This document shows, piece after piece, positions 1,049 to 30,909 of a stretch of 31,100 bases of DNA. Position 1 is the first letter of the stretch; each line of letters opens with the position of its first letter. The stretch lies in the NCBI RefSeq assembly GCF_003334765.1, contig NZ_QOWT01000040.1; one strand, written 5' to 3'. This DNA is from Escherichia coli (lineage in GTDB: Bacteria > Pseudomonadota > Gammaproteobacteria > Enterobacterales > Enterobacteriaceae). The translations under genes were made by a program, and so were the position numbers. The notes below the pieces were generated by a model, which saw nothing but the letters and a program-made list of their open reading frames with translations, ran no database searches and was not told the DNA's origin.

Positions 1049-1539
1049 AATATTGGAAAGGTTACTTTGTTTTGAAGTAGCCTTTCGTCCTTCAATATTC
1101 ACGATTACTTATTGCTATTACCAAGTCCAGTCGAATCGAAGAACATCTTTTATCTGAAACGACTCCTAATACCAGGTTGAAGCCACAATATCTCTCGCAT
1201 AAGTAGACCAAAGAAAAATTATGATATTAACTATGTGATTTTTTTTAGTGTTAAGTTGAATAATTATATACTGGAGAGTTTTCTGTACACTACCAATTGC
1301 TGGTTCATCTGTTCTGCCGCTGATGTTTCTGACTAATCTCCCGGTGACACAGAACTGTCCCTCTCTACCAGCCTTTATTCGACTCAATGTCCGGCTGCTG
1401 ATACGCAGTTATCCCTTCGTATCAATGACTGACTCTTAAACGCAATGCTTTGGTTGCTGGCGTATCTGACAGCTTCTTCGGCGTGAAGGTCGTTGTGTAA
1501 GTATACTTCTTGGTTTATTTAGGCTATATAAAACCATGA

Positions 1540-2436
1540 CTATGACTGGCTGTTTTCAGTAAGAGTCTTATCATCCAAAGAATTTATTCTAGAAATTCTT
1601 TTTAACTCATTAAGATAATCAACCTCGTTTTCTAAGAACCAATGAAGAACTTTAGAGTTGCCAAGTAATTTATTAATATATGACTGGATTATAACGAATT
1701 TCAACATATCTGAACCATACTCGGTTTGAAGTTTTTTCGTTTCTTCCGAAGTTGTTGCCATTTCTTGTTCCAGACGAAGTATGGTTTTTTTTATGTCCTT
1801 TTTATAGGGAGTGTTTTTCCCTTTATTTACTATCATCGATGACGGTGTTGCATCCAAGATGCTCATTGCAAATTTTTTACTATAATTATCAAAATTAATC
1901 ATTGTACCGACTGCTTCAATTTGACGAATTGGCTTCATTTTCCTCAAAACGTCAAATGTAGCCTTAGGTATAGGTTTATCAGAAAGTTTCGCAATTACAC
2001 TTGGATCTATGCCGTTCATCACATTAGCTTTATCTTTTATGGCATCAACAGATATGCCCAAAGCAGCACTAAGTTTTTCAATTGATACTTTTGCCAGAGA
2101 CTTAATTATCATTCTATGTTCTTCAACTACATTTATATGATTCACTTGTTTGTTAGGAGTGAAAGCATCATCTATGCTCGAAAGTATACATGGAGCTTTT
2201 TCTATATCTAAGTCTTTTAAAGCCTCAACCCTTAAATGGCCATCAAGTATCTTAGTGACATCTTTATCTTTGTCATAGAATACTATTATTGGTTCAATAA
2301 TACCCAAGCTTTCGATAGAGGTAACTATTTGATGATATTTATGGCTTCGCTTTACGTTTTCTAATAATTCCTTAGATGGAATTAACTTATTAGTTTCCAG
2401 GTAAATAAAATTTTTGCCAAAACGTATCTGAATCAT
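1540..2436 (-). CDS. ParB/Srx-like protein B (298 aa), third gene of the operon
   Basis: ParB-like N-terminal layout (IIEPIIV...ILDGHLRVEAL...APCIL) followed by a helix-turn-helix-like segment (SIEKLSAALGISVDAI). ATG overlaps the stop of the upstream gene by 4 nt (ATGA). Confidence 0.6.
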   Translation of the reverse strand: MIQIRFGKNFIYLETNKLIPSKELLENVKRSHKYHQIVTSIESLGIIEPIIVFYDKDKDVTKILDGHLRVEALKDLDIEKAPCILSSIDDAFTPNKQVNHINVVEEHRMIIKSLAKVSIEKLSAALGISVDAIKDKANVMNGIDPSVIAKLSDKPIPKATFDVLRKMKPIRQIEAVGTMINFDNYSKKFAMSILDATPSSMIVNKGKNTPYKKDIKKTILRLEQEMATTSEETKKLQTEYGSDMLKFVIIQSYINKLLGNSKVLHWFLENEVDYLNELKRISRINSLDDKTLTENSQS

Positions 2437-3329
2437 TTTGATACCTCTTTGTTTACTGGGTTTAATATCTGAGATGGTAGTTCTGAAAGATTCTCTTGTT
2501 CAAGTATATTTTGAAAGCTTTTATTCATCATTATGATGTTAAAAATCTCATTTATTATTAGTAGATTGGTTTTTATAAATTTCGAGTTGTTATAAACAGA
2601 TTTATGTTCAGCGATACTATTTTCATAAAGCTCAATCAACTCCTCTGCAGTCATCCTTTTTGATGGTTTGTGATAATAAAATCCGGCTGCTTTTGCACCT
2701 TTATTCCCAACTGTTCTTTGATTTAGAATGTATTTTATCTTTATAATGTCCCGACTTTTTATTAATTTTTTATCATATGCTTCGGTAAGAATATCTTGTG
2801 CTTCCTCAGTTTCACATCTTGCAAATTGCACTGCGAGATACAGAGGCAAATTACCCCGTTCGACTGCTGAGAGAAGTTTATGCTCTCCCTTATCAAGAAG
2901 CATATTAATACTGCTCACCCAGTTCGATGAATATCCAGTAATCTCACTTATTTCGGAGTCTGAAAGTCCTCTGATTTTCATGTCTTTAATCACCTGTAAT
3001 AACTCATTAGAACGTGGTCTTCTCCTTGCAATGTTTTCAACTAAACTCATAACGTAAGCATCTTCTTCTGATACATCTCTTATAATTGCTGGAATAATAG
3101 TTTCACCTAATGCAACAAGAGCCTCTATTCTCCCTTGACCACAAATTAAAGCATATTTGAAATCGTCTTCATCAATAGCTCTTACGCTTATAGGCTTGCT
3201 TAATCCTCTTTTTTTTATGCTTTCCTTTATTTCTTCATGCACTACCTTATTTCTTGTTCGTGGGTTAAGAAATTTTATTTTTGCAATCTCAATTTGAATT
3301 ATTGGGAATTCATTTTTTTCAGGCAGCAT
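2433..3329 (-). CDS. ParB/Srx-like protein A (298 aa), second gene of the operon
   Basis: Close positional match to ParB/Spo0J N-terminal domain plus HTH: PISVRAI...ICGQGRIEAL...IPAIIRDVSEEDAYVMSLVENIARR...LSDSEISEITGYSSNWVSSINMLL. GAGGG Shine-Dalgarno 7 nt upstream; start overlaps the recombinase stop by 11 nt. Confidence 0.65.
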   Translation of the reverse strand: MLPEKNEFPIIQIEIAKIKFLNPRTRNKVVHEEIKESIKKRGLSKPISVRAIDEDDFKYALICGQGRIEALVALGETIIPAIIRDVSEEDAYVMSLVENIARRRPRSNELLQVIKDMKIRGLSDSEISEITGYSSNWVSSINMLLDKGEHKLLSAVERGNLPLYLAVQFARCETEEAQDILTEAYDKKLIKSRDIIKIKYILNQRTVGNKGAKAAGFYYHKPSKRMTAEELIELYENSIAEHKSVYNNSKFIKTNLLIINEIFNIIMMNKSFQNILEQENLSELPSQILNPVNKEVSK

Positions 3330-4875
3330 ATAGTTCCCTCACTTTCATGCGAGTAATAATTTGTAGAAATTTATCAAGATTATCAAATCTATAGAGATCT
3401 AACCGAATGTTGTTTGTTTCCATCATACACATTTTACTATATTCGTTTTCAATCTTTGGTATGATATAAAAATCAAGAGGTGAAATATTTTGTGAATTCA
3501 TTCGTATAACAATTGTTATGTCTGCTTTCTGTGAGTTATCAAACCGGACTTTCCATCTAAGTTTACCTGATTTCATATGTATGCATTTAGTAACAAGGAC
3601 GGAAATTAAAAACTCATCATTGATGTAAAGCATTGGGTAATATTTATACTCGTCTATATGACAGTTACTTTTTAATATTTCGCCCTTAAAATCCTCAATT
3701 ATCTCTGAGTAAAATGATCTTAGTGCTTCATTTATTTGGAGATAGCTGTAATCATGTTCTGGCTTATAACCAATCAAAGTATATGCTCTTAAAAGACCAC
3801 CAAATCGGGTTCTATAAACAGAAGATGAAGGGCCTGTATCATCTTCATCAATGATAAAGCCTGATAGTTTTCCATTAGATTCTAATTTTTCTTTTAGCTT
3901 TTCTAATAGATCTTCATTAGTCAAATGAATGGATCGGAGCTGAATTATTTCTTGAGCTTTATTATATTTTTTCTTTGAAATAATTGGTTTATATGCCTTG
4001 TCACATCTAATCCATTCATGTTTGGGGTTTTTTACAAGCTTACTTTTTAGTTTAGATGAGGTTTTGTTATATATGTTGTTTCCAATATATTTTTCATTTG
4101 TCAAAATTTGATGTATTTTTGCACGAGTCCATGATGTTCCATTTTCTGCAGGTATGCTCTGTTCATTTAATCTCTCAGCAATAATGAATTCTGGGACGTT
4201 ACTATCTATAAAGAGATCATAGATTCTATTTACAATTTTTATTTCATTTTTTGGTCCCGGAATTAATATTACCCTATCTGTTTGAATACTCTTTCTTTTG
4301 CGGAAATTCAATATTTCTTTAGCTATGCCATTTTCGTCTACTAAAAGACGTCTCAGCCCATAACCAGCCATACCGCCTTGATGATAACCAAGCTTTATTA
4401 AATTTACTTGCCCTATAAATACCTTTTCAGATAGATTCCTGCTGTGATATGCAGCACTTGATCTTTTTATATTCAGTATAACAGAGGACTCTAAAGGGAA
4501 ATCTTTAGTGGGTATAGGTTCGGAACAATATATAAGATCTACACCATTTCTTTCAAATAGAAAGGAATAATATGCAGCTTCATCACTATTTTGAAAACGA
4601 CCAAAACGGCTCACATCATAAAATAATACAGCCTGTATATCTATTTTCTTTTGTTCTACATCGCTAAGTAACTGCTGCAAAGAATGCCTGCCTACGATAC
4701 TGACTCCGCTCTTACCTGCATCATCGTAGGTATAAGCGATTTCCATATTGTTCTTTTCAGCATAATCTTTGATATATTCAGACTGATTATGTAAAGAATA
4801 TTGCTGATGGTCGGTAGACATCCTCAAGTACTGTGCGACCCTAACTCTATGATTTTTTTCATTTCCGCTAGCCAT
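3319..4875 (-). CDS. Large serine recombinase-like protein (about 518 aa; track ORF starts at TTG 4881, first ATG at 4875)
   Basis: Resolvase-type catalytic domain motifs in the right order: YLRMSTDHQ (presumed nucleophile Ser), DDAGKSG, RHSLQQLL, VSRFGR. Then a recombinase-domain signature: GGMAGYGL ... WTRAKIHQILTNEKYIGN. GAGG Shine-Dalgarno upstream of the ATG. Confidence 0.7.
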   Translation of the reverse strand: MASGNEKNHRVRVAQYLRMSTDHQQYSLHNQSEYIKDYAEKNNMEIAYTYDDAGKSGVSIVGRHSLQQLLSDVEQKKIDIQAVLFYDVSRFGRFQNSDEAAYYSFLFERNGVDLIYCSEPIPTKDFPLESSVILNIKRSSAAYHSRNLSEKVFIGQVNLIKLGYHQGGMAGYGLRRLLVDENGIAKEILNFRKRKSIQTDRVILIPGPKNEIKIVNRIYDLFIDSNVPEFIIAERLNEQSIPAENGTSWTRAKIHQILTNEKYIGNNIYNKTSSKLKSKLVKNPKHEWIRCDKAYKPIISKKKYNKAQEIIQLRSIHLTNEDLLEKLKEKLESNGKLSGFIIDEDDTGPSSSVYRTRFGGLLRAYTLIGYKPEHDYSYLQINEALRSFYSEIIEDFKGEILKSNCHIDEYKYYPMLYINDEFLISVLVTKCIHMKSGKLRWKVRFDNSQKADITIVIRMNSQNISPLDFYIIPKIENEYSKMCMMETNNIRLDLYRFDNLDKFLQIITRMKVRELYAA

Positions 4876-5157
4876 GCACAAAACCTCATGGATGATTCAA
4901 TACAATGTAGAGGATAAAATTGATCAAATTTTAACCGAATTCAACTGTTTTATCATTGATTAGAGCGAATTTGGTAGTTCTTCGAGGTGTATGATAATCG
5001 AGAAGAGATGTGAATTATTTAGCTGATATGACCGACAGCTTTCGTTATGTGGCCTCAAGGTACCCATTTGTAAATGGCTATGCTTAGTCCACATAGGTTA
5101 ATGGTGTGATCATTAATTCTTCAAATAAATCAAGATAGTTAACCCATCATGGAAGAG

Positions 5158-6387
5158 TTATGCGGCAATAACTTTGTATTTTTGAGACGAAACATAGTCA
5201 CTCCACCATTGCATGAGAACCACACGTTCTGTGAGATACTCTGCACGATTGTAGGCTGCAATTATTTCATCTTTTTTCGAGTGGGCAAGGGCGGCTTCTA
5301 AGACATCAGTTCTAAACTTGCCACACTCCTCAGCCGCCGTTCTAGCGATTGATCGCATACCATGAGCTACAAGCTCACCTCCGAAGCCCATACGGATTAT
5401 AGCCGCATTAGCTGTTTGTTCATGCATGTGATTGAGTGGAGCTTTGATACTGGGAAAAACCCACTCTCTATGCCCGCTGATGGCTTTCATTGAATCCAAG
5501 ACTCGCAAAGATTCTTTGCTCAGTGGAACTTTGTGAGGCTTCTTCATTTTCATAAACTCCGCCGGGATGTTCCACATGCTGGTTTCTATATCAATATCTG
5601 ACCATCTTGTGCGAACAGCTTCACCAGGGCGAACCCATGTGAGAAGTTGCCACTCAATCAGTAGCCTTGTTTCTAAACGGATAGAAGCATTGTTTAGAGC
5701 AACCAGGAAGCGGGGGAGTTCGGAAGGGGGTAATGCTGGCATATTCTGTTTTTTTGGCTTGCTGAACCGTTGCCCCAGGTTGTCAGCCGGATTGAATTCT
5801 ATGAGTTCTTCTGTTGCTGCATAGCGGAAAATTTCATTCAGGCGGGATATGACGCGGCGAAGTGTTTCAAGGACACCTCGTTTTTCTATGGGGTCTAAAT
5901 GCTGTTTAAGCATTTTAGGGCGAATCTCCTTAATGGGGGTATCACCCAACGTTGGAAAGATATTTCTCTCTAGGCTTCGCCAGATGTCGTTAGCATGATC
6001 CTGGGAGATGCCTGACGTTTTGACTTTCTCATCAAGCCACTTCTTGGCTACTGCTTGAAATGTATGTTCCGTTGCATCCTTAAGGGCATTGGCTTTGTGG
6101 GTGTTATGAATTTGTGGGTCTATACCATTTGCAAGCAACGACAAGTACTCATCACGTAAAGCTCGTGCCTTCGCAAGTGTAAGGTGAGGATAGGTTCCTA
6201 AGCTCACCTTAGTTCGCTTTTTGGTCACAGGCACTGCATATCTGAAATACCAATTTTTCTTTCCTCCCTTCGCTAAGGGGGCGATTCGCAGGAGCAAACC
6301 ATCGCCGTCAAAAAGGTTAACCTCTTTCTCGGCAGGTTTGGTGCTTTTGATTTCAGTGTCAGTGAGCTTCTTAGCGATTTTTGCCAT
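5158..6387 (-). CDS. P4-family tyrosine integrase (409 aa from MAKIAKKLTDTEIK; the track ORF extends upstream to 6531)
   Basis: N-terminus typical of P4/CP4-57-type integrases; C-terminal tyrosine recombinase motifs (HGMRSIARTAAE ... AHSKKDEIIAAYNRAEY); sits directly beside the ssrA 3' end. Confidence 0.85.
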   Translation of the reverse strand: MAKIAKKLTDTEIKSTKPAEKEVNLFDGDGLLLRIAPLAKGGKKNWYFRYAVPVTKKRTKVSLGTYPHLTLAKARALRDEYLSLLANGIDPQIHNTHKANALKDATEHTFQAVAKKWLDEKVKTSGISQDHANDIWRSLERNIFPTLGDTPIKEIRPKMLKQHLDPIEKRGVLETLRRVISRLNEIFRYAATEELIEFNPADNLGQRFSKPKKQNMPALPPSELPRFLVALNNASIRLETRLLIEWQLLTWVRPGEAVRTRWSDIDIETSMWNIPAEFMKMKKPHKVPLSKESLRVLDSMKAISGHREWVFPSIKAPLNHMHEQTANAAIIRMGFGGELVAHGMRSIARTAAEECGKFRTDVLEAALAHSKKDEIIAAYNRAEYLTERVVLMQWWSDYVSSQKYKVIAA

Positions 6388-6553: not shown

Positions 6554-6916
6554 TGGTGGAGCTGGCGGGAGTTGAACCCGCGTCCGAAATTCCTACATCC
6601 TCGGTACTACATGCTTAGTCAGTCTTTACATTCGCTTGCCAGCTGCGGACGGACACGCCACTAACAAACTAGCCTGATTAAGTTTTAACGCTTCAACCCC
6701 AGGCAGGGCTTCCACGCGATCTCTTTTGGGTTTGACCTCTCTTGATCCCCGTCCTAAGAGCGGAGGCTAGGGAGAGAGGGCTCTAAGCAGGTTATTAAGC
6801 TGCTAAAGCGTAGTTTTCGTCGTTTGCGACTATTTTTTGCGGCTTTTTACGAGGCCAACCGCCCCTCGGCATGCACCTTGGGTTTCGCAAATCCCGTCGA
6901 ATCCAGAATCAGCCCC
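6554..6916 (-). ncRNA. ssrA: tmRNA (SsrA), 363 nt
   Basis: Reverse complement reads GGGGCTGATTCTGGATTCGACGGGATTTGCGAAACCC ... GGGTTCAACTCCCGCCAGCTCCACCA, i.e. the tRNA-like 5' and 3' ends of tmRNA including the CCA end. Confidence 0.92.
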
Positions 6917-7130
6917 AATGTGTAAAGGTAAGTATACCAGATTTATGAGCGCCATGACCAGCCTCAATGGCGTTATCGTTAAAGATTTAGCACCCATGTA
7001 GCCTGATTTTTATTCGATTAAGCAATGGGATGGCAACATTTGTGTCGGATGTGATAGCCAATAAGATGTTCATTCGCGCCGCCGGAGAGGGAGGCGCGGT
7101 GAGGAACTGGTCAATAATTGGAGTGCAGGT

Positions 7131-10799: not shown

Positions 10800-11678
10800 T
10801 TAGAATAATTTTTTTGACCAGCCGAGCTTGGTGCTTAATGTGTTGAAATAACTGTAATCTTTCGGATGAATCAGATTCAGATGGTAATCACAGCGACGAA
10901 TCAGGACATCTTCACCTTCCTGAATCGGCAGTGCTATCTGGCTGTCGCAACTGATTTCCAGGTCGTTACGGCGATGCGAAAAACGCAGACGGATCGTGCT
11001 GCTGCTGTTTATGACCAGTGGTCGTGCTGACAACGTATGCGGGAACATGGGCACCAGGGTAATCGCATCCAGAGAGGGGGTCAGAATAGGACCGCCTGCA
11101 GAGAGGGAATAGGCGGTGGAGCCTGTTGGCGTCGAAATAATTAGTCCATCAGATCGCTGAGAAAACGCAAAGATCTCGTCGATATACACTTCGAACTCAA
11201 TCATATGCGCCACTTTGCCTGGATGAAGCACCACTTCATTTATCGCGGTGCTGATGCGTTTCTGGCAATCTTGCTGACAGACTTGCGCTTCCAGCAAAAA
11301 ACGTTTCTCGCTGATGTAGTGGCCTTCCAGCACATCGGCTAACTGTTGCTGGGCGTTATCGGGGTCAAGGTCAGTCAGGAAACCCAGGTTGCCACGGTTG
11401 ATTCCAATAACTTTAATATCGTAACGGGCGAGTGTGCGTGCCGCGCCCAGCATATTACCGTCGCCACCAACGACTACCGCGAGATCAGCTAGTTGCCCAA
11501 TCTCCGCGAGCGTGCCAGTTTTCACATTCTTCAGTTGCAGTTCGTGAGCGATTTGTTGCTCAACGATGACCTCGTAACCTTTTGTGCACAGCCAGCGGTA
11601 GAGCATTTCATGTGTTGTCAGTGCAGTGGGGTGCCGTGGGTGTCCCACAATGCCAATACACTTGAAATGATTATTCAT
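10800..11678 (-). CDS. nadK: NAD kinase NadK (292 aa)
   Basis: Recognised translation; GGDG motif; synteny. Confidence 0.9.
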
Positions 11679-11724
11679 TTTTCCGAGGTCCTTGTTGCGA
11701 AGATTGATGACAATGTGAGTGCTT

Positions 11725-11755
11725 CCCTTGAAACCCTGAAACTGATCCCCATAAT
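11725..11755 (+). promoter_or_regulatory. Sigma-32 heat-shock promoter of grpE
   Basis: CCCTTGAAA, 13-bp spacer, CCCCATAAT, about 45 bp upstream of the grpE ATG. Confidence 0.75.
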
Positions 11756-11767
11756 AAGCGAAGTTAG

Positions 11768-12394
<627 letters not shown>

Positions 12395-18899: not shown

Positions 18900-20126
18900 T
18901 TATCTCACCAGCTTTTCGGCACGCTGGTGTTTGGCCTGATACATATTGTGATCGGCAAGCTCTTGTAATTTTTCCGCAGAGGCGTGCTCAATGGTCATCG
19001 CGTAACCAATGCTTAATGTCATGGTGGTCTGATGGCCATTATGAAGATCAAACGGGAGATTAAAGATTTGTGTCAGTGCTGAACATATCTGCTGCACTTC
19101 AGATTCCGACTGTACATCATAGAGCACCATAGCGAATTCATCGCCGCCCAGGCGGTATGCTTTATGTCGCAGCCCGCCAAATTCAGCTAACCGTTTTGCG
19201 ATTTCAATCAAGACTCTATCGCCCGTCGCATGACCCCAGGTATCATTGATGTATTTGAAATTATCGCCATCAAGAAATAGTAACGCCGACGTTTTTCGGG
19301 CATCGGAATTGTTCATCAACGTGTTGATGCCGCTACGAAACGCTGCGCGGTTAGCCAGCCCGGTTAATGGGTCATGTAGCGCGGTACGTAGAAGCTGCGC
19401 ATTTTTAGCCTGTAAACGAAGCTGCCACTCTTCCATTTCATCCAGCAGACTGTTGAAGTCGAGAGCGAAGCGGTGAAACTCAGCGATACGTTCTTCCGAA
19501 ACTCGTCGGGAAAAATTGCGGTTGGAACGCACATCATGTACGACATCGGTGATATTTTTCAGCGCTTCTACCAGGCCATTGTGCAAATGGCGGGTGAGGG
19601 TAATTGCGATGCCTGATGCTAGCAGAATACAACCGGTCAGTACGGCGAGCGAAAACCAGATAAAATGGCTGATTGAACTGTCGCGAGCGGTTAAGCGTAC
19701 TTCGCCAATGGTTTCACCATTGTGACGAATCGGCTGAATGATGGGGGCAGGGAAGAGCCAGTGGCTTATGAAATTACTGAAAGTATCGCCTGGATCCTTA
19801 CGGGTGTAATGCCAGGATGCCAGAATATTTTGCTGCTTATCACGTACTTCTGCAGTTGAAAATTGCCCTTGCTGGCCCAGCGCTGCCAGTGTTTCAGTTG
19901 CTGCAGGGCCATCGGCAAAAACGACAGCTGCTTCCAGACTGTAAGTCATTGTTGCTGCTGTCAGTGCCAGGTTTTTTTGCGCGTACTGTTTCAGGGTCAG
20001 CACCGAGGTCACGGAAAGCAGCAACCAGATCAGCATCATAGTGATAAATATGCTGGTCATACTGATGTTGCGTAATGCTCTTTTAAACGTGGGGCGCTTA
20101 TTAAGAGAATTATCGTTATCCATCAT
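18900..20126 (-). CDS. dgcN: Diguanylate cyclase DgcN/YfiN (408 aa)
   Basis: Transmembrane N-terminus; GGDEF motif ([12 protein letters not shown]). Confidence 0.9.
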
Positions 20127-20634
20127 TTTTCTTCCGTGCGAGCATTAAGACATCCGGGTTGACCTTTACACCGCTACGCGATAAGGCATCCAGGTTTACG
20201 GCAAATCTGACGTCATTATTGTGGATGATCAGACAAAAGGCGCTACCAATAATGCACTCGGTATTTTGTTCGGCAATTAATAATAACGCCTTTGACGGAT
20301 ATTGTTCGGTTAATTCCATCTGGAATGTCGGTGACTCGTTGCCAAAATAAAAACCATTGCAGCCTGAAATCATCGCCTCTTGTTGAGTGTGAATGATGAC
20401 AGGCAGATAAGGCAAAGATGTCGCGGCATTCTCTTGTAGGGCGGTACTAAAACGTGAAGATGAAAAGATACATAACTTTGGTGGCCCTGATAGCGCAGGC
20501 CAGCGGGTGTAACTGACAATACCGGAAACCATCATACGCACGTTTTTCGCAACGTCAGAAGGCTCCTGAGCGAGTATTGGTGCTCCCGTCAGCAGGAGAA
20601 TCAGAAGTAAGAACAGTCGGTGAGAAAAACGCAT
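20116..20634 (-). CDS. yfiR: Periplasmic DgcN repressor YfiR (172 aa)
   Basis: Signal peptide; synteny; 11-nt overlap with the dgcN start. Confidence 0.85.
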
Positions 20635-20783
20635 TCAGGGATCCCCACCATCTTCGCTCGAAATGCATCGATATTTTTTCAGAATGCTCATTAAAATATC
20701 ATTTTTTCATGCGACCGTCATCAATGTGAGAAATAAAACACAATGAGTAAAATCTTATGTTTAATTTATTTGTGGGGTTTTAA

Positions 20784-21149
20784 TTAATTTAATCGTATTG
20801 TGCTGGCATTTTCATCAGCCCCTTTTTGCCATACTTCATGCAGTTGGCTGGCATTTTCAACATTGTTGCAGCTGGCAGGAAAGCTTTTACCGGAAAGTCC
20901 TCGGGCATAAGTAAAATCGGTCTGGCAAGTTTTCTTTTGTCCTTCGGCATATCCTTTAAGGTATAGACCGCGATCCGCCTGTGAATCGCTAAATGCATCG
21001 TCATCTTTTATGGCGCTGCCCGATATCGCATCTTCCATACCGACATCATACCAGTCGGTGCTGGTCAAGGTTGGCGCGTGAGTATAAGGATCAATCTGAC
21101 ATCCGCTAACCAGTAAAGCCAACAAGGGGGCGATAAACTTTTTCATCAT
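20784..21149 (-). CDS. yfiL: Lipoprotein YfiL (121 aa from MMKKFIAPLLALLVSGCQ)
   Basis: Lipobox; synteny; the track ORF extends 13 codons upstream to 21188. Confidence 0.75.
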   Translation of the reverse strand: MMKKFIAPLLALLVSGCQIDPYTHAPTLTSTDWYDVGMEDAISGSAIKDDDAFSDSQADRGLYLKGYAEGQKKTCQTDFTYARGLSGKSFPASCNNVENASQLHEVWQKGADENASTIRLN

Positions 21150-21194
21150 TTCTTTCTCCTTTTTCAAAGCATAGCGGATTGTTTTCAAAGGGAG

Positions 21195-21264
21195 TGTAAA
21201 TTTATATATACAGAGGTAAGGGTTGAAAGCGCGACTAAATTGCCTGTGTAAATAAAAATGTACG
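21195..21264 (+). promoter_or_regulatory. aroF promoter region with TyrR boxes
   Basis: TGTAAATTTATATATACA (21195-21212) and TGTAAATAAAAATGTACG (21247-21264) match the TGTAAA-N6-TTTACA TyrR consensus upstream of aroF. Confidence 0.65.
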
Positions 21265-21358
21265 AAATATGGATTGAAAACTTTACTTTATGTGTTATCG
21301 TTACGTCATCCTCGCTGAGGATCAACTATCGCAAACGAGCATAAACAGGATCGCCATC

Positions 21359-22429
21359 ATGCAAAAAGACGCGCTGAATAACGTACATATTACCGACGAA
21401 CAGGTTTTAATGACTCCGGAACAACTGAAGGCCGCTTTTCCATTGAGCCTGCAACAAGAAGCCCAGATTGCTGACTCGCGTAAAAGCATTTCAGATATTA
21501 TCGCCGGGCGCGATCCTCGTCTGCTGGTAGTATGTGGTCCTTGTTCCATTCATGATCCGGAAACTGCTCTGGAATATGCTCGTCGATTTAAAGCCCTTGC
21601 CGCAGAGGTCAGCGATAGCCTCTATCTGGTAATGCGCGTCTATTTTGAAAAACCCCGTACCACTGTCGGCTGGAAAGGGTTAATTAACGATCCCCATATG
21701 GATGGCTCTTTTGATGTAGAAGCCGGGCTGCAGATCGCGCGTAAATTGCTGCTTGAGCTGGTGAATATGGGACTGCCACTGGCGACGGAAGCGTTAGATC
21801 CGAATAGCCCGCAATACCTGGGCGATCTGTTTAGCTGGTCAGCAATTGGTGCTCGTACAACGGAATCGCAAACTCACCGTGAAATGGCCTCCGGGCTTTC
21901 CATGCCGGTTGGTTTTAAAAACGGCACCGACGGCAGTCTGGCAACAGCAATTAACGCTATGCGCGCCGCCGCCCAGCCGCACCGTTTTGTTGGCATTAAC
22001 CAGGCAGGGCAGGTTGCGTTGCTACAAACTCAGGGGAATCCGGACGGCCATGTGATCCTGCGCGGTGGTAAAGCGCCGAACTATAGCCCTGCGGATGTTG
22101 CGCAATGTGAAAAAGAGATGGAACAGGCGGGACTGCGCCCGTCTCTGATGGTAGATTGCAGCCACGGTAATTCCAATAAAGATTATCGCCGTCAGCCTGC
22201 GGTGGCAGAATCCGTGGTTGCTCAAATCAAAGATGGCAATCGCTCAATTATTGGTCTGATGATCGAAAGTAATATCCACGAGGGCAATCAGTCTTCCGAG
22301 CAACCGCGCAGTGAAATGAAATACGGTGTATCCGTAACCGATGCCTGCATTAGCTGGGAAATGACCGATGCCTTGCTGCGTGAAATTCATCAGGATCTGA
22401 ACGGGCAGCTGACGGCTCGCGTGGCTTAA
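21359..22429 (+). CDS. aroF: Tyrosine-sensitive DAHP synthase AroF (356 aa)
   Basis: [24 protein letters not shown]... lies inside track ORF 21290-22429. Confidence 0.93.
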
Positions 22430-24990: not shown

Positions 24991-25013
24991 GGCGATACAC
25001 TCAATATAAAGGA

Positions 25014-25409
<396 letters not shown>

Positions 25410-25577
25410 TCAAAATGTGTGATGAAAATCTCATAATTTTGTCACTTTTTGTCAACGAATCTTTTTTGTGAGAAATCGCAGGAAGAGATGTTTTTTTACT
25501 TGAGGAATATCTCAAAGCGAGCCATATTTGATGAGATCGATAGCGACTAAATCGCTTCAGTTTCACAACTGACAGAA

Positions 25578-27478: not shown

Positions 27479-28206
27479 GTAAGCTGATTGTCCCGCAGTG
27501 GCCGCAGCCAAAAGGTGTTGCGGCCTGTAGCTCCACTCGTATCGGCGGCGTGAGCTTGCCCCCGTATGACTCACTCAACCTCGGTGCCCATTGTGGCGAT
27601 AACCCGGATCACGTTGAGGAGAATCGCAAGCGACTTTTTGCTGCGGGCAATTTGCCTTCTAAACCGGTCTGGCTTGAGCAGGTACACGGCAAAGATGTGC
27701 TTAAGCTCACTGGCGAACCTTATGCCTCAAAACGGGCGGATGCCTCTTATAGCAATACGCCCGGCACGGTTTGCGCAGTGATGACTGCCGACTGCCTCCC
27801 TGTGCTGTTTTGCAATCGAGCGGGAACGGAAGTCGCCGCCGCTCATGCTGGCTGGCGTGGACTGTGCGCAGGCGTGCTGGAAGAGACGGTTTCCTGTTTT
27901 GCTGATAATCCGGAAAATATTCTCGCCTGGTTAGGGCCGGCAATTGGTCCACGCGCGTTCGAAGTGGGGGGGGAGGTTCGCGAGGCGTTTATGGCAGTAG
28001 ACGCTAAAGCAAGTGCAGCTTTCATTCAGCATGGTGATAAGTATCTGGCGGATATTTATCAGCTTGCCCGGCAGCGTCTGGCGAACGTGGGTGTTGAGCA
28101 AATTTTCGGCGGCGACCGTTGTACATATACGGAAAATGAGACTTTCTTCTCTTATCGTCGCGACAAGACCACCGGTCGTATGGCAAGTTTCATTTGGCTG
28201 ATATAA
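27475..28206 (+). CDS. yfiH: YfiH/PgeF family protein (243 aa), start overlapping the rluD stop
   Basis: Recognised translation; 4-nt overlap with rluD. Confidence 0.88.
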   Translation: MSKLIVPQWPQPKGVAACSSTRIGGVSLPPYDSLNLGAHCGDNPDHVEENRKRLFAAGNLPSKPVWLEQVHGKDVLKLTGEPYASKRADASYSNTPGTVCAVMTADCLPVLFCNRAGTEVAAAHAGWRGLCAGVLEETVSCFADNPENILAWLGPAIGPRAFEVGGEVREAFMAVDAKASAAFIQHGDKYLADIYQLARQRLANVGVEQIFGGDRCTYTENETFFSYRRDKTTGRMASFIWLI

Positions 28207-28268
28207 CCTAAAGAATCAAGACGATCCGGTACGCGTGATTTTCTTTTCACATTAATCTGGTCAATAAC

Positions 28269-28297
28269 CTTGAATAATTGAGGGATGACCTCATTTA
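28269..28297 (+). promoter_or_regulatory. Sigma-32 heat-shock promoter of clpB
   Basis: CTTGAA, spacer of about 14 bp, CCTCATTTA, about 40 bp upstream of the clpB ATG. Confidence 0.65.
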
Positions 28298-28335
28298 ATC
28301 TCCAGTAGCAACTTTGATCCGTTATGGGAGGAGTT

Positions 28336-30909
28336 ATGCGTCTGGATCGTCTTACTAATAAATTCCAGCTTGCTCTTGCCGATGCCCAATCACTTGCACT
28401 CGGGCACGACAACCAATTTATCGAACCACTTCATTTAATGAGCGCCCTGCTGAATCAGGAAGGGGGTTCGGTTAGTCCTTTATTAACATCCGCTGGCATA
28501 AATGCTGGCCAGTTGCGCACAGATATCAATCAGGCATTAAATCGTTTACCGCAGGTTGAAGGTACTGGTGGTGATGTCCAGCCATCACAGGATCTGGTGC
28601 GCGTTCTTAATCTTTGCGACAAGCTGGCGCAAAAACGTGGTGATAACTTTATCTCGTCAGAACTGTTCGTTCTGGCGGCACTTGAGTCTCGCGGCACGCT
28701 GGCCGACATCCTGAAAGCAGCAGGGGCGACCACCGCCAACATTACTCAAGCGATTGAACAAATGCGTGGAGGTGAAAGCGTGAACGATCAAGGTGCTGAA
28801 GACCAACGTCAGGCTTTGAAAAAATATACCATCGACCTTACCGAACGAGCCGAACAGGGCAAACTCGATCCGGTGATTGGTCGTGATGAAGAAATTCGCC
28901 GTACCATTCAGGTGCTGCAACGTCGTACTAAAAATAACCCGGTACTGATTGGTGAACCCGGCGTCGGTAAAACTGCCATCGTTGAAGGTCTGGCGCAGCG
29001 TATTATCAACGGCGAAGTGCCGGAAGGGTTGAAAGGCCGCCGGGTACTGGCGCTGGATATGGGCGCGCTGGTGGCTGGGGCGAAATATCGCGGTGAGTTT
29101 GAAGAACGTTTAAAAGGCGTGCTTAACGATCTTGCCAAACAGGAAGGCAACGTCATCCTATTTATCGACGAATTACATACCATGGTCGGCGCGGGTAAAG
29201 CCGATGGCGCAATGGACGCCGGAAACATGCTGAAACCGGCGCTGGCGCGTGGTGAATTGCACTGCGTAGGTGCCACGACGCTTGACGAATATCGCCAGTA
29301 CATTGAAAAAGATGCTGCGCTGGAACGTCGTTTCCAGAAAGTGTTTGTTGCCGAGCCTTCTGTTGAAGATACCATTGCGATTCTGCGTGGCCTGAAAGAA
29401 CGTTACGAATTGCACCACCATGTGCAAATTACTGACCCGGCAATTGTTGCAGCGGCGACGTTGTCTCATCGCTACATTGCTGACCGTCAGCTGCCGGATA
29501 AAGCCATCGACCTGATCGATGAAGCAGCATCCAGCATTCGTATGCAGATTGACTCAAAACCAGAAGAACTCGACCGACTCGATCGTCGTATCATCCAGCT
29601 CAAACTGGAACAACAGGCGTTAATGAAAGAGTCTGATGAAGCCAGTAAAAAACGTCTGGATATGCTCAACGAAGAACTGAGCGACAAAGAACGTCAGTAC
29701 TCCGAGTTAGAAGAAGAGTGGAAAGCAGAGAAGGCATCGCTTTCTGGTACGCAGACCATTAAAGCGGAACTGGAACAGGCGAAAATCGCTATTGAACAGG
29801 CTCGCCGTGTGGGGGACCTGGCGCGGATGTCTGAACTGCAATACGGCAAAATCCCGGAACTGGAAAAGCAACTGGAAGCCGCAACGCAGCTCGAAGGCAA
29901 AACTATGCGTCTGTTGCGTAATAAAGTGACCGACGCCGAAATTGCTGAAGTGCTGGCGCGTTGGACGGGGATTCCGGTTTCTCGCATGATGGAAAGCGAG
30001 CGCGAAAAACTGCTGCGTATGGAGCAAGAACTGCACCATCGCGTAATTGGTCAGAACGAAGCGGTTGATGCGGTATCTAACGCTATTCGTCGTAGCCGTG
30101 CGGGGCTGGCGGATCCAAATCGCCCGATTGGTTCATTCCTGTTCCTCGGCCCAACTGGTGTGGGGAAAACAGAGCTTTGTAAGGCGCTGGCGAACTTTAT
30201 GTTTGATAGCGACGAGGCGATGGTCCGTATCGATATGTCCGAGTTTATGGAGAAACACTCGGTGTCTCGTTTGGTTGGTGCGCCTCCGGGATATGTCGGT
30301 TATGAAGAAGGTGGCTACCTGACCGAAGCGGTGCGTCGTCGTCCGTATTCCGTCATCCTGCTGGATGAAGTGGAAAAAGCGCATCCGGATGTCTTCAACA
30401 TTCTGTTGCAGGTACTGGATGATGGGCGTCTGACTGACGGGCAAGGGAGAACGGTCGACTTCCGTAATACGGTCGTCATTATGACCTCTAACCTCGGTTC
30501 CGATCTGATTCAGGAACGCTTCGGTGAACTGGATTATGCGCACATGAAAGAGCTGGTGCTCGGTGTGGTAAGCCATAACTTCCGTCCGGAATTCATTAAC
30601 CGTATCGATGAAGTGGTGGTCTTCCATCCGCTGGGTGAACAGCACATTGCCTCGATTGCGCAGATTCAGTTGAAACGTCTGTACAAACGTCTGGAAGAAC
30701 GTGGTTATGAAATCCACATTTCTGACGAGGCGCTGAAACTGCTGAGCGAGAACGGTTACGATCCGGTCTATGGTGCACGTCCTCTGAAACGTGCAATTCA
30801 GCAGCAGATCGAAAACCCGCTGGCACAGCAAATACTGTCTGGTGAATTGGTTCCGGGTAAAGTGATTCGCCTGGAAGTTAATGAAGACCGGATTGTCGCC
30901 GTCCAGTAA
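28336..30909 (+). CDS. clpB: Chaperone ClpB (857 aa from [10 protein letters not shown])
   Basis: Two AAA+ modules ([16 protein letters not shown]); the track ORF extends 4 codons upstream to 28324. Confidence 0.95.

Follow-up and report, generated by a model that had tools for sequence, protein, structure and literature searches.

A large serine recombinase strictly linked to two ParB-like proteins in an ssrA island of Escherichia coli: a possible recombination module of mobile DNA

The DNA analyzed here is a stretch of 31,100 nucleotides from the chromosome of Escherichia coli (RefSeq assembly GCF_003334765.1, contig NZ_QOWT01000040.1; hereafter, the window), in which smpB and ssrA, the gene for transfer-messenger RNA (tmRNA), are followed by a P4-type tyrosine integrase gene and then by an AT-rich block. 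The list of open reading frames (ORFs) and the sequence indicated that this block consists of three co-directional minus-strand ORFs, which encode a large serine recombinase (LSR) and two ParB-like proteins (ParB1 and ParB2) and are called the trio below. The LSR stop codon and the ParB1 start codon lie in an 11-nt overlap (ATGCTGCCTGA, 3319-3329) with GAGGGAA upstream, and the ParB1 stop and ParB2 start share ATGA at 2433-2436 with AGAGG upstream; the purine-rich sequences at both junctions are Shine-Dalgarno-like. An earlier sequence-only reading had described three overlapping minus-strand genes of this kind, and its description was accurate in every detail. As the probable start of the LSR we prefer the ATG at 4875, which RefSeq also chose, rather than the alternative in-frame TTG at 4881 (ORF 3319-4881). 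The low GC content noted in that reading was also confirmed, being 0.31-0.35 over 1501-5000 versus 0.43-0.46 in the integrase gene and about 0.5 in the core genome. Comparison of the E. coli alleles gave dN/dS (the ratio of nonsynonymous to synonymous substitution rates) of 0.05-0.3 for all three genes; purifying selection acts on each of them.

The distribution of the trio was examined in several collections. It was present in 661 of 5,426 complete E. coli genomes (12%), was at least 80% complete in 620, and lay adjacent to the same integrase in 604. The carriers include E. coli B and BL21, in which the insertion sequence IS1 has removed everything past the trio. A ParB1 profile run against one genome per species gave at least 593 loci (593 of at least 600 stretches were confirmed), the best 80 of which came from Enterobacterales, Burkholderiales, Stenotrophomonas, Pseudomonas, and many Alphaproteobacteria. 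With Geobacter, Salmonella, and Morganella, which were added by other look-ups, the taxonomic spread covers the Alpha-, Beta-, and Gammaproteobacteria and Geobacter. Furthermore, 65 more loci were found in IMG/VR and 54 trio-bearing plasmids in PLSDB, including pAtC58 of Agrobacterium fabrum C58.

About 145 loci were fetched. In every one with a long enough contig, full-length genes stood in the order LSR-ParB1-ParB2 on one strand, with overlapping start and stop codons or close spacing, and each trio had one recombinase; protein identity to the E. coli trio was as low as 27-31% in the most distant loci. Because order and strand were constant in all these loci, the three-gene arrangement is not due to chance. 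The sequence-only reading had stated that it would fail if the three genes did not co-occur in other genomes; co-occurrence was strict, which decisively removes that objection.

Two further genes recurred beside the trio. A small divergent helix-turn-helix (HTH) gene was located about 150 bp upstream in 39 alphaproteobacterial loci; it is annotated as DeoR family on a Sphingobium plasmid. A DUF3987 helicase-like gene matching phage primase-helicase families was fused into the operon in five loci. These five are from IMG/VR (L117 3356-4729, L133 4289-5641, L153 4136-5479, L115, and L119), and their DUF3987 protein of about 450 aa, encoded directly after ParB2, matches the helicase part of those families. 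In two of three Salmonella enterica contigs (L006 and L008; about 10893-11789) ParB2 was broken, having either no gene call or a split into 75 and 198 aa. As the recombinase and ParB1 are intact in these contigs, the trio decays in some lineages. An apparent second trio arranged head-to-head in L074 was rejected, the extra recombinase being an unrelated LSR. A phage origin of the trio was also dropped: GenBank phages gave no nucleotide matches and only one tiny match at the protein level, and the IMG/VR matches look like islands.

The LSR has the composition of an integrase-type enzyme, namely a catalytic resolvase domain with the nucleophilic serine and a recombinase domain (Pfam Resolvase, 1.4e-21; Recombinase, 1.1e-21), and PHROGs labels it an integrase. 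Across 26 aligned homologues that share 39-62% identity with the window protein, the catalytic signature Y16, R18, S20, T21, Q24, D87, R90, G92, and R93 is invariant, in agreement with the earlier statement that the serine-recombinase motifs are intact. The protein matched the PDB domains of TP901-1, SprA, and TnpX. Its best curated matches in NCBIfam were CcrB, CcrC, and the IS607 transposase, all far under the cut-offs; CcrB, the best of them (7.3e-18), reached 64.5 bits against a family cut-off of 900.

The C-terminus of the LSR was unusual. The zinc ribbon with coiled-coil insert expected there was not found, since the protein gave neither a zinc-ribbon match nor a coiled coil, and only one nearly conserved cysteine lies within the C-terminal 200 residues. 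The region contains one "homing endonuclease associated repeat" (a helical segment) and a restriction-endonuclease-like fold, in which no conserved D...(D/E)xK catalytic signature was observed. This domain is the fastest-evolving part of the recombinase. It matched 1,764 protein clusters (50% identity) at E<=1e-10, a count that includes some related recombinases with other C-terminal architectures. Among such relatives, P0121 and similar proteins have five or six such repeats in tandem behind the recombinase domain and constitute a distinct serine-recombinase architecture, as opposed to the single repeat and restriction-endonuclease-like domain of the LSR. Because the zinc ribbon is absent and the homing endonuclease associated repeat is present in the LSR and its relatives, this clade is predicted to use homing-endonuclease-type DNA-binding modules in place of the zinc ribbon and coiled coil.

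ParB1 matched ParB_N and RepB in Pfam and exceeded the cut-off of the NCBIfam parB_part model with 61.7 bits. It has the N-terminal CTPase-type fold and HTH of partition-system ParB proteins, its GQGR and ENIARR boxes were invariant (alignment A1), and its nearest solved relatives were Spo0J, Noc, and KorB, the HTH region aligning with Spo0J and Noc. ParB2 is divergent: it matched RepB at 6.8e-24 and ParB_N at 7.8e-5, and it has kept DGHLR and lost the ENxxR box (alignment A3). A profile-profile comparison of the two with hhalign gave a probability of 96% with 17% identity over 249 columns. Together with the domains common to both, this upholds the earlier description of two ParB-like paralogues, which appear to be full-length and ancient. 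RefSeq names the genes "ParB/RepB/Spo0J family partition protein"; PHROGs assigns ParB1 to phrog_3951 and tags both ParB families "unknown function". As the sequence-only reading had remarked, a ParA partner was lacking: no ParA-type ATPase is annotated across the 30-kb island of strain H3, nor was ParA annotated in the examined E. coli islands, the pAtC58 region, or the Sphingobium plasmid region. No ParA Pfam family was found beside the trio in the Geobacter, Salmonella, and Morganella contigs, and no conserved ATPase neighbor emerged when the flanks of about 85 loci were clustered.

Upstream of the LSR gene we found a 16-bp palindrome with one mismatch to the perfect form. The same palindrome occurs once per locus, at -57/-58, in the trios of Yersinia, Citrobacter, Erwinia oleae, and one IMG/VR contig, the LSRs of which are only 46-51% identical to the window LSR. 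Conservation of a non-coding 16-mer while the proteins diverged to this extent implies function. With a palindromic AT at its center, it resembles a dimer operator or a parS-type site, not a serine-recombinase crossover site. It is overlapped by the -10 hexamer of a promoter candidate identified purely by pattern; such matches were no more numerous in the region than expected from shuffling. Autoregulated resolvase and par operons have such promoter-overlapping sites. Each locus of this lineage has the single conserved palindrome in the promoter, and no cluster of parS-like sites was observed. Other trio lineages carry different palindromes; since palindromes as a class were not enriched over shuffled controls, we dropped them as a general trait of trio promoters and restrict the claim to the lineage of the window. 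The positions of the features are summarized in Table 1.

Table 1 Positions of the trio and associated features in the window.
Feature	Position	Strand	Description
LSR (large serine recombinase)	3319-4875	minus	ATG at 4875 with GAGG 8 nt upstream; 518 aa
ParB1	2433-3329	minus	298 aa; ParB_N, HTH, and RepB-like C-terminus
ParB2	1540-2436	minus	298 aa; divergent ParB1 paralogue with strong RepB C-terminal domain
Palindrome	4916-4931		Near-perfect palindrome of 16 bp, AAAATTGATCAAATTT (consensus AAAATTGATCAATTTT), located 57 nt before the LSR ATG; possible operator, or loading site of parS type
Promoter candidate	4928-4956	minus	Sigma-70-like (ATGATA, 17 nt, TAAAAT); consensus scan, 9/12; -10 hexamer overlaps the palindrome
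Cassette 3' edge	1492-1539		Homology between two E. coli island types stops 48 nt past the ParB2 stop
Tyrosine integrase	5158-6387	minus	P4-type, of the ssrA island; RefSeq annotation of the identical strain H3 locus; outside the trio
ssrA (tmRNA)	6554-6916	minus	Island integration site; ARAGORN; Rfam RF00023, 295.8 bits

Trios with 92-98% nucleotide identity were found in unrelated flanks of different genera; examples are the pairs Citrobacter/Erwinia and Caulobacter/Brevundimonas, two Stenotrophomonas strains, and several sphingomonads. The homology of such near-identical cassettes ended 2-49 nt past the ParB2 stop on the downstream side and 44-227 nt before the LSR start on the upstream side, or about 500-850 nt before it when the divergent HTH gene was included. 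With these limits, the trio behaves as a swappable cassette that is compact, at about 3.4-3.9 kb.

The boundaries were clearest on Agrobacterium plasmids, where a 3,904-bp unit composed of the HTH gene and the trio occurs with 97% identity in two contexts. On pAtC58 it has an AbiE toxin-antitoxin pair on one side and Fic on the other; on pAt1D1460 a different Fic gene takes one side and sugar-uptake genes the other. An imperfect 20-bp direct repeat, GCCTTGAAnGGrATyGAACC, borders the unit at both ends in each case; read as its reverse complement, this motif resembles the T-arm and acceptor 3' strand of a tRNA. The same 20-mer stands at the end of the AbiE module on a plasmid without the trio that shares synteny with pAtC58 in its left flank. 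Elsewhere it precedes the Fic module, and in other genera four plasmids have it at the end of the second Fic module. The motif was located at 6930-6949 and 10812-10831 in L159, at 5003 and 8885 in L161, at 6034 in L162, and at 4001 in L163. Because AbiE and Fic modules are also bounded by it, the trio is one of several cassettes delimited by a common attachment-like site, and the motif is possibly a shared recombination site for cassette exchange on Rhizobiaceae plasmids. A search of Agrobacterium plasmids for an exact empty site found none and showed that the motif ends other modules too.

The position of the trio in the E. coli island was compared with sister ssrA islands that have related integrases (79-84% identical) and no trio. 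These aligned with the window only from 5191 on, a point slightly within the integrase gene at its 3' end, and a mobilization relaxase at the far island end was common to trio-bearing and trio-less islands. In the sister island of enterotoxigenic E. coli (ETEC) H10407, the slot of the trio is occupied by Mokosh type I (MkoA, 1.1e-262; MkoB, 6.4e-99; L012 3197-8642). The trio had been placed in a cargo slot beside the integrase in the sequence-only reading, and both results bear this out. Three alleles of the trio with 100%, about 98%, and about 94.5% nucleotide identity were distinguished in E. coli, all beside the integrase, and the cargo downstream varied with the allele, being a RelA/SpoT-domain gene pair, an IS1 truncation, or TIGR04141 with HxsABCD. 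The window and the Hxs-type islands (L013 and L002) begin to align only at 1492/1489, and no terminator-like site was found at the cassette 3' edge (1492-1539).

The Hxs-type islands (L013 5482-5743; L002) contain, between ParB2 and the TIGR04141 and HxsABCD cargo, a duplicate of the integrase 3' end; it spans 262 bp at 79% identity and is located about 100 bp past ParB2. This suggests a remnant of a second, older island integrase and thus tandem accretion; tandem accretion followed by deletion explains the fragment. The idea that the trio had inserted in the integrase 3' end with a replacement copy was dropped, because the identity between island types is unchanged at that point and the integrase gene is a recombination mosaic. 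At about 1450-1498 of the window, a short fragment resembled the termini of IS3-family elements from Klebsiella, Erwinia, and Pantoea plasmids, with about 88% identity, and RefSeq annotates an "IS3 family transposase" remnant just past the cassette 3' edge in many E. coli genomes.

Because a catalytically intact recombinase is strictly linked to two ParB paralogues, with translational coupling and a palindrome in the promoter, these features point to a single DNA-handling machine. We tentatively propose, with less than even confidence, that the trio is a self-regulated, cis-acting recombination module of mobile DNA that is shuffled horizontally as an accessory cassette. In this scheme, ParB1 and ParB2 would bind the 16-bp palindrome in their own promoter as homo- or heterodimers and thereby repress the operon. 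By analogy with the CTP-gated clamps of ParB, Noc, and KorB, the pair might then load onto the flanking DNA. The LSR lacks the zinc-ribbon and coiled-coil module that provides site recognition and control of synapsis in ordinary phage integrases, and ParB-marked DNA would recruit or license it to recombine two copies of one site. By this route the cassette would be excised and inserted again, or tandem or multimeric copies of its carrier plasmid or island would be resolved. Here we infer the ParB-palindrome binding, its CTP dependence, the contact between ParB and recombinase, and the identity of the recombination substrate.

Several findings support this proposal. Each of the three proteins comes from a family classically involved in the DNA transactions of mobile elements, the catalytic motifs of the LSR are invariant, and the genes are under purifying selection. 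The linkage is strict in about 145 loci, the palindrome is conserved in sequence and position between diverged trios and overlaps the predicted -10, and near-identical cassettes stand in unrelated flanks. The Agrobacterium module with its 20-bp repeats, the DUF3987 fusions, and the locations on large conjugative plasmids and beside integrases, both in E. coli and in the guaA islands of Alphaproteobacteria, are also consistent with it.

Other observations weigh against the proposal. The life cycle of the island does not need the trio, because sister islands with a related integrase and relaxase have none. All matches in the 661 E. coli genomes were chromosomal and almost always in single copy, and no inversion, second location, or empty site was found among them. 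An empty site had been sought in the genomes with TIGR04141 cargo, and all 61 of these also carry the trio. In the window and the fetched E. coli islands no ssrA-type attachment repeat was detected past the trio, and no terminal direct or inverted repeats were detected at the E. coli cassette, where the AT-rich DNA gave only chance-level matches. Since the 20-mer bounds AbiE and Fic modules on plasmids with no trio nearby, the shuffling in Agrobacterium may be done by another recombinase, the trio being just cargo. Finally, upstream palindromes were found in 44 of 137 loci and in 37 of 137 shuffled controls, and are thus not demonstrable in all lineages.

We also examined whether the trio corresponds to a described system. 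PADLOC-DB 2.0 contained no families for LSR and ParB1 and no model for any trio protein, the sole match of ParB2 being to a type II methyltransferase model, in which it covers the N-terminal 80 residues, a ParB-like stretch. Full-text searches of the literature, including searches by protein accession, found no description of the trio. A 2025 survey of the ParB-CTPase fold noted orphan ParB proteins on mobile elements and did not mention recombinases. The earlier view that this is not a named system was thereby sustained, and the trio is a widespread, undescribed variant of mobile-element recombination modules, neither an ordinary partition locus nor a named system.

The nearest described analogue is the DsiB/DsiA integration module found at the ssrA end of Dehalococcoides ssrA islands (McMurdie et al. 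2011, PMC3146451). As in the trio, an operon at the ssrA end of the island encodes a CcrB-like LSR of about 540 aa and a ParB-domain protein, with variable cargo after it (PMC3146451). The Dsi module comprises six genes, adding a second small serine recombinase and RecF-like, Mom-like, and polymerase-domain proteins; its single ParB-domain protein has 210 aa, and its serine recombinase is the island integrase with the attachment site inside its gene. Unlike that arrangement, the E. coli locus has a tyrosine integrase between ssrA and the trio, its two ParB paralogues are 298 aa each, and no attachment site was detected in it.

The relation of the LSR to the CcrA/CcrB recombinases of SCCmec, the Ccr module of which also includes the Cch helicase, is detectable by sequence. 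An SCC (staphylococcal cassette chromosome) element has short direct repeats at its ends and a replicative helicase encoded near ccrAB. Parallels to this are the DUF3987 helicase-like gene in five trio loci and the 20-bp direct repeats in Agrobacterium. However, the trio has one recombinase, not the pair represented by CcrA and CcrB or by DsiA and DsiB; it lacks the zinc ribbon, most loci have no helicase, and its ParB proteins are without counterpart in SCC. No attL/attR pair was found in the E. coli window, and the Agrobacterium repeats also bound modules without a recombinase.

The trio also resembles the ParA-independent CTP switches Noc, KorB, and VirB. ParB1 aligned with Noc over about 215 residues and also with KorB, the GxxR and ENxxR boxes are kept, and the single specific palindrome in the promoter recalls KorB operators. 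The differences are that the trio has two paralogues, the second without ENxxR, and that these are always coupled to a recombinase. Like the Tn3/gamma-delta and plasmid multimer resolution systems, the trio combines a serine recombinase and a conserved putative protein-binding site overlapping its own promoter, and is located on mobile DNA. However, the LSR has 518 aa with a recombinase domain, whereas the resolvase has 185 aa with a C-terminal HTH. The accessory role, which belongs to extra resolvase dimers, HU, or Fis in Tn3-type systems, would fall to the ParB proteins, and no second recombination site was identified for the trio.

The setting of the trio raises a serious rival reading, which we rate below the first, that it is a new anti-phage or anti-plasmid defense, one of the hypotheses of the sequence-only reading. 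The ParB-like clamps would detect or load on invader DNA, or sense a nucleotide change, and the serine recombinase would act as effector by breaking, scrambling, or integrating the invader, or by killing the cell via unreligated double-strand breaks. Among the 30 immediate downstream neighbors in 30 different loci, 8 were strong PADLOC matches; PD-T4-3, restriction enzymes of types I, II, and III, AbiEi, ZacC, DrmB, and a DEDDh exonuclease were found beside the trio. In addition to the AbiE and Fic flanks on pAtC58, the Geobacter trio adjoins AbiEi and a type I restriction-modification system, and in ETEC H10407 the exact slot of the trio is that of Mokosh type I. The patchy occurrence in E. 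coli (12%), the AT-richness, and a swappable nature like that of the neighboring AbiE and Fic modules fit this reading, and published papers describe ParB/Srx-fold domains in the known defense proteins GmrSD, DndB, and DpdB.

The trio therefore clearly resides in defense islands, but integrases and transposons do so too; since mobile-element genes are also enriched there, location is not discriminating. Moreover, no PADLOC model was matched except for the ParB-like N-terminal segment of the methyltransferase model, no system with a serine-recombinase effector was found in the literature searched, and the restriction-endonuclease-like domain has no conserved D...(D/E)xK. The single conserved palindrome in the promoter of the operon itself points to self-DNA as the binding target. 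In its most specific form, this reading would make the trio an unrecognized class of immunity in which a heterodimeric ParB-like nucleotide-gated clamp is coupled to a serine recombinase, not a nuclease, as effector, which we consider slightly less probable still.

A further reading, which we judge unlikely, is that the trio is a stabilizing or regulatory module of its carrier, in which KorB/VirB/Noc-like, ParA-independent silencers or anti-silencers spread from the palindrome and the LSR serves only as a resolvase of multimers or tandem arrays. The closeness of ParB1 to Spo0J, Noc, and KorB with kept GxxR and ENxxR boxes is consistent with this, as is the location of the palindrome between the integrase gene and the operon, both of which spreading could reach. 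A divergent HTH regulator (DeoR-like by annotation or XRE-type by resemblance) is added in many lineages, the DNA is AT-rich and hence prone to H-NS silencing, and the trio is present on large plasmids and chromids. However, the recombinase is catalytically intact, strictly linked, and translationally coupled, which argues for recombination as the core of the function and not as an accessory. In the two plasmid regions examined, the trio lies among accessory genes with no rep or par genes annotated nearby, and sister islands manage without it. The sequence-only reading had offered a DNA-segregation or silencing module of the island as one hypothesis, and in the sense of an island-backbone function this was weakened by the sister islands, which have the same integrase and relaxase. 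Its alternative of a second element nested in the island gained from the cassette-like behavior in other taxa and lost from the lack of attachment sites at the E. coli copy. A classical parABS-type partition locus with ParA lost or borrowed, suggested by the RefSeq name and the parB_part match of ParB1, is essentially excluded by the missing adjacent ParA in the examined islands and plasmid regions, the lack of a conserved ATPase neighbor in about 85 loci, the chromosomal location in all 661 E. coli genomes, the constant pairing of two ParB paralogues with a recombinase, and the single palindrome per locus.

Whichever reading applies, whether the trio drives the exchange of cassettes in defense islands, hitch-hikes as a mini-element, or is a new defense, it bears on how these islands are assembled. 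With at least 593 loci, 12% of complete E. coli genomes, and BL21 among its carriers, the trio is a very common architecture that has been overlooked and is still annotated as "partition protein". It couples two well-studied machines, a serine recombinase and a ParB of the CTP-switch type, that are not known to work together. Because the clade has exchanged zinc-ribbon and coiled-coil control for homing-endonuclease-like modules, it could show that site-specific recombination can be targeted or licensed in a new manner, which would be relevant to the recombinases used in genome engineering. The trio can be tested directly in E. coli B/BL21 and in Agrobacterium C58, both ready-made for the purpose.

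Some minor features of the window were also noted. At 107-487 on the plus strand lies the 3' end of a RelA/SpoT-domain gene, which is convergent on the trio and extends upstream in L001 (10098-12415). In strain H3, a co-directional gene for a 470-aa hypothetical protein is located upstream of it, and neither has a PADLOC match; the pair could be toxin-type cargo of the small alarmone synthetase kind. Positions 1-72 were unaligned with otherwise identical E. coli islands, the best matches of which begin at 73. Other low-GC patches (0.42-0.45) occur at 20001-21500, 25001-25500, and 28001-28500, within a core region of about 50% GC.

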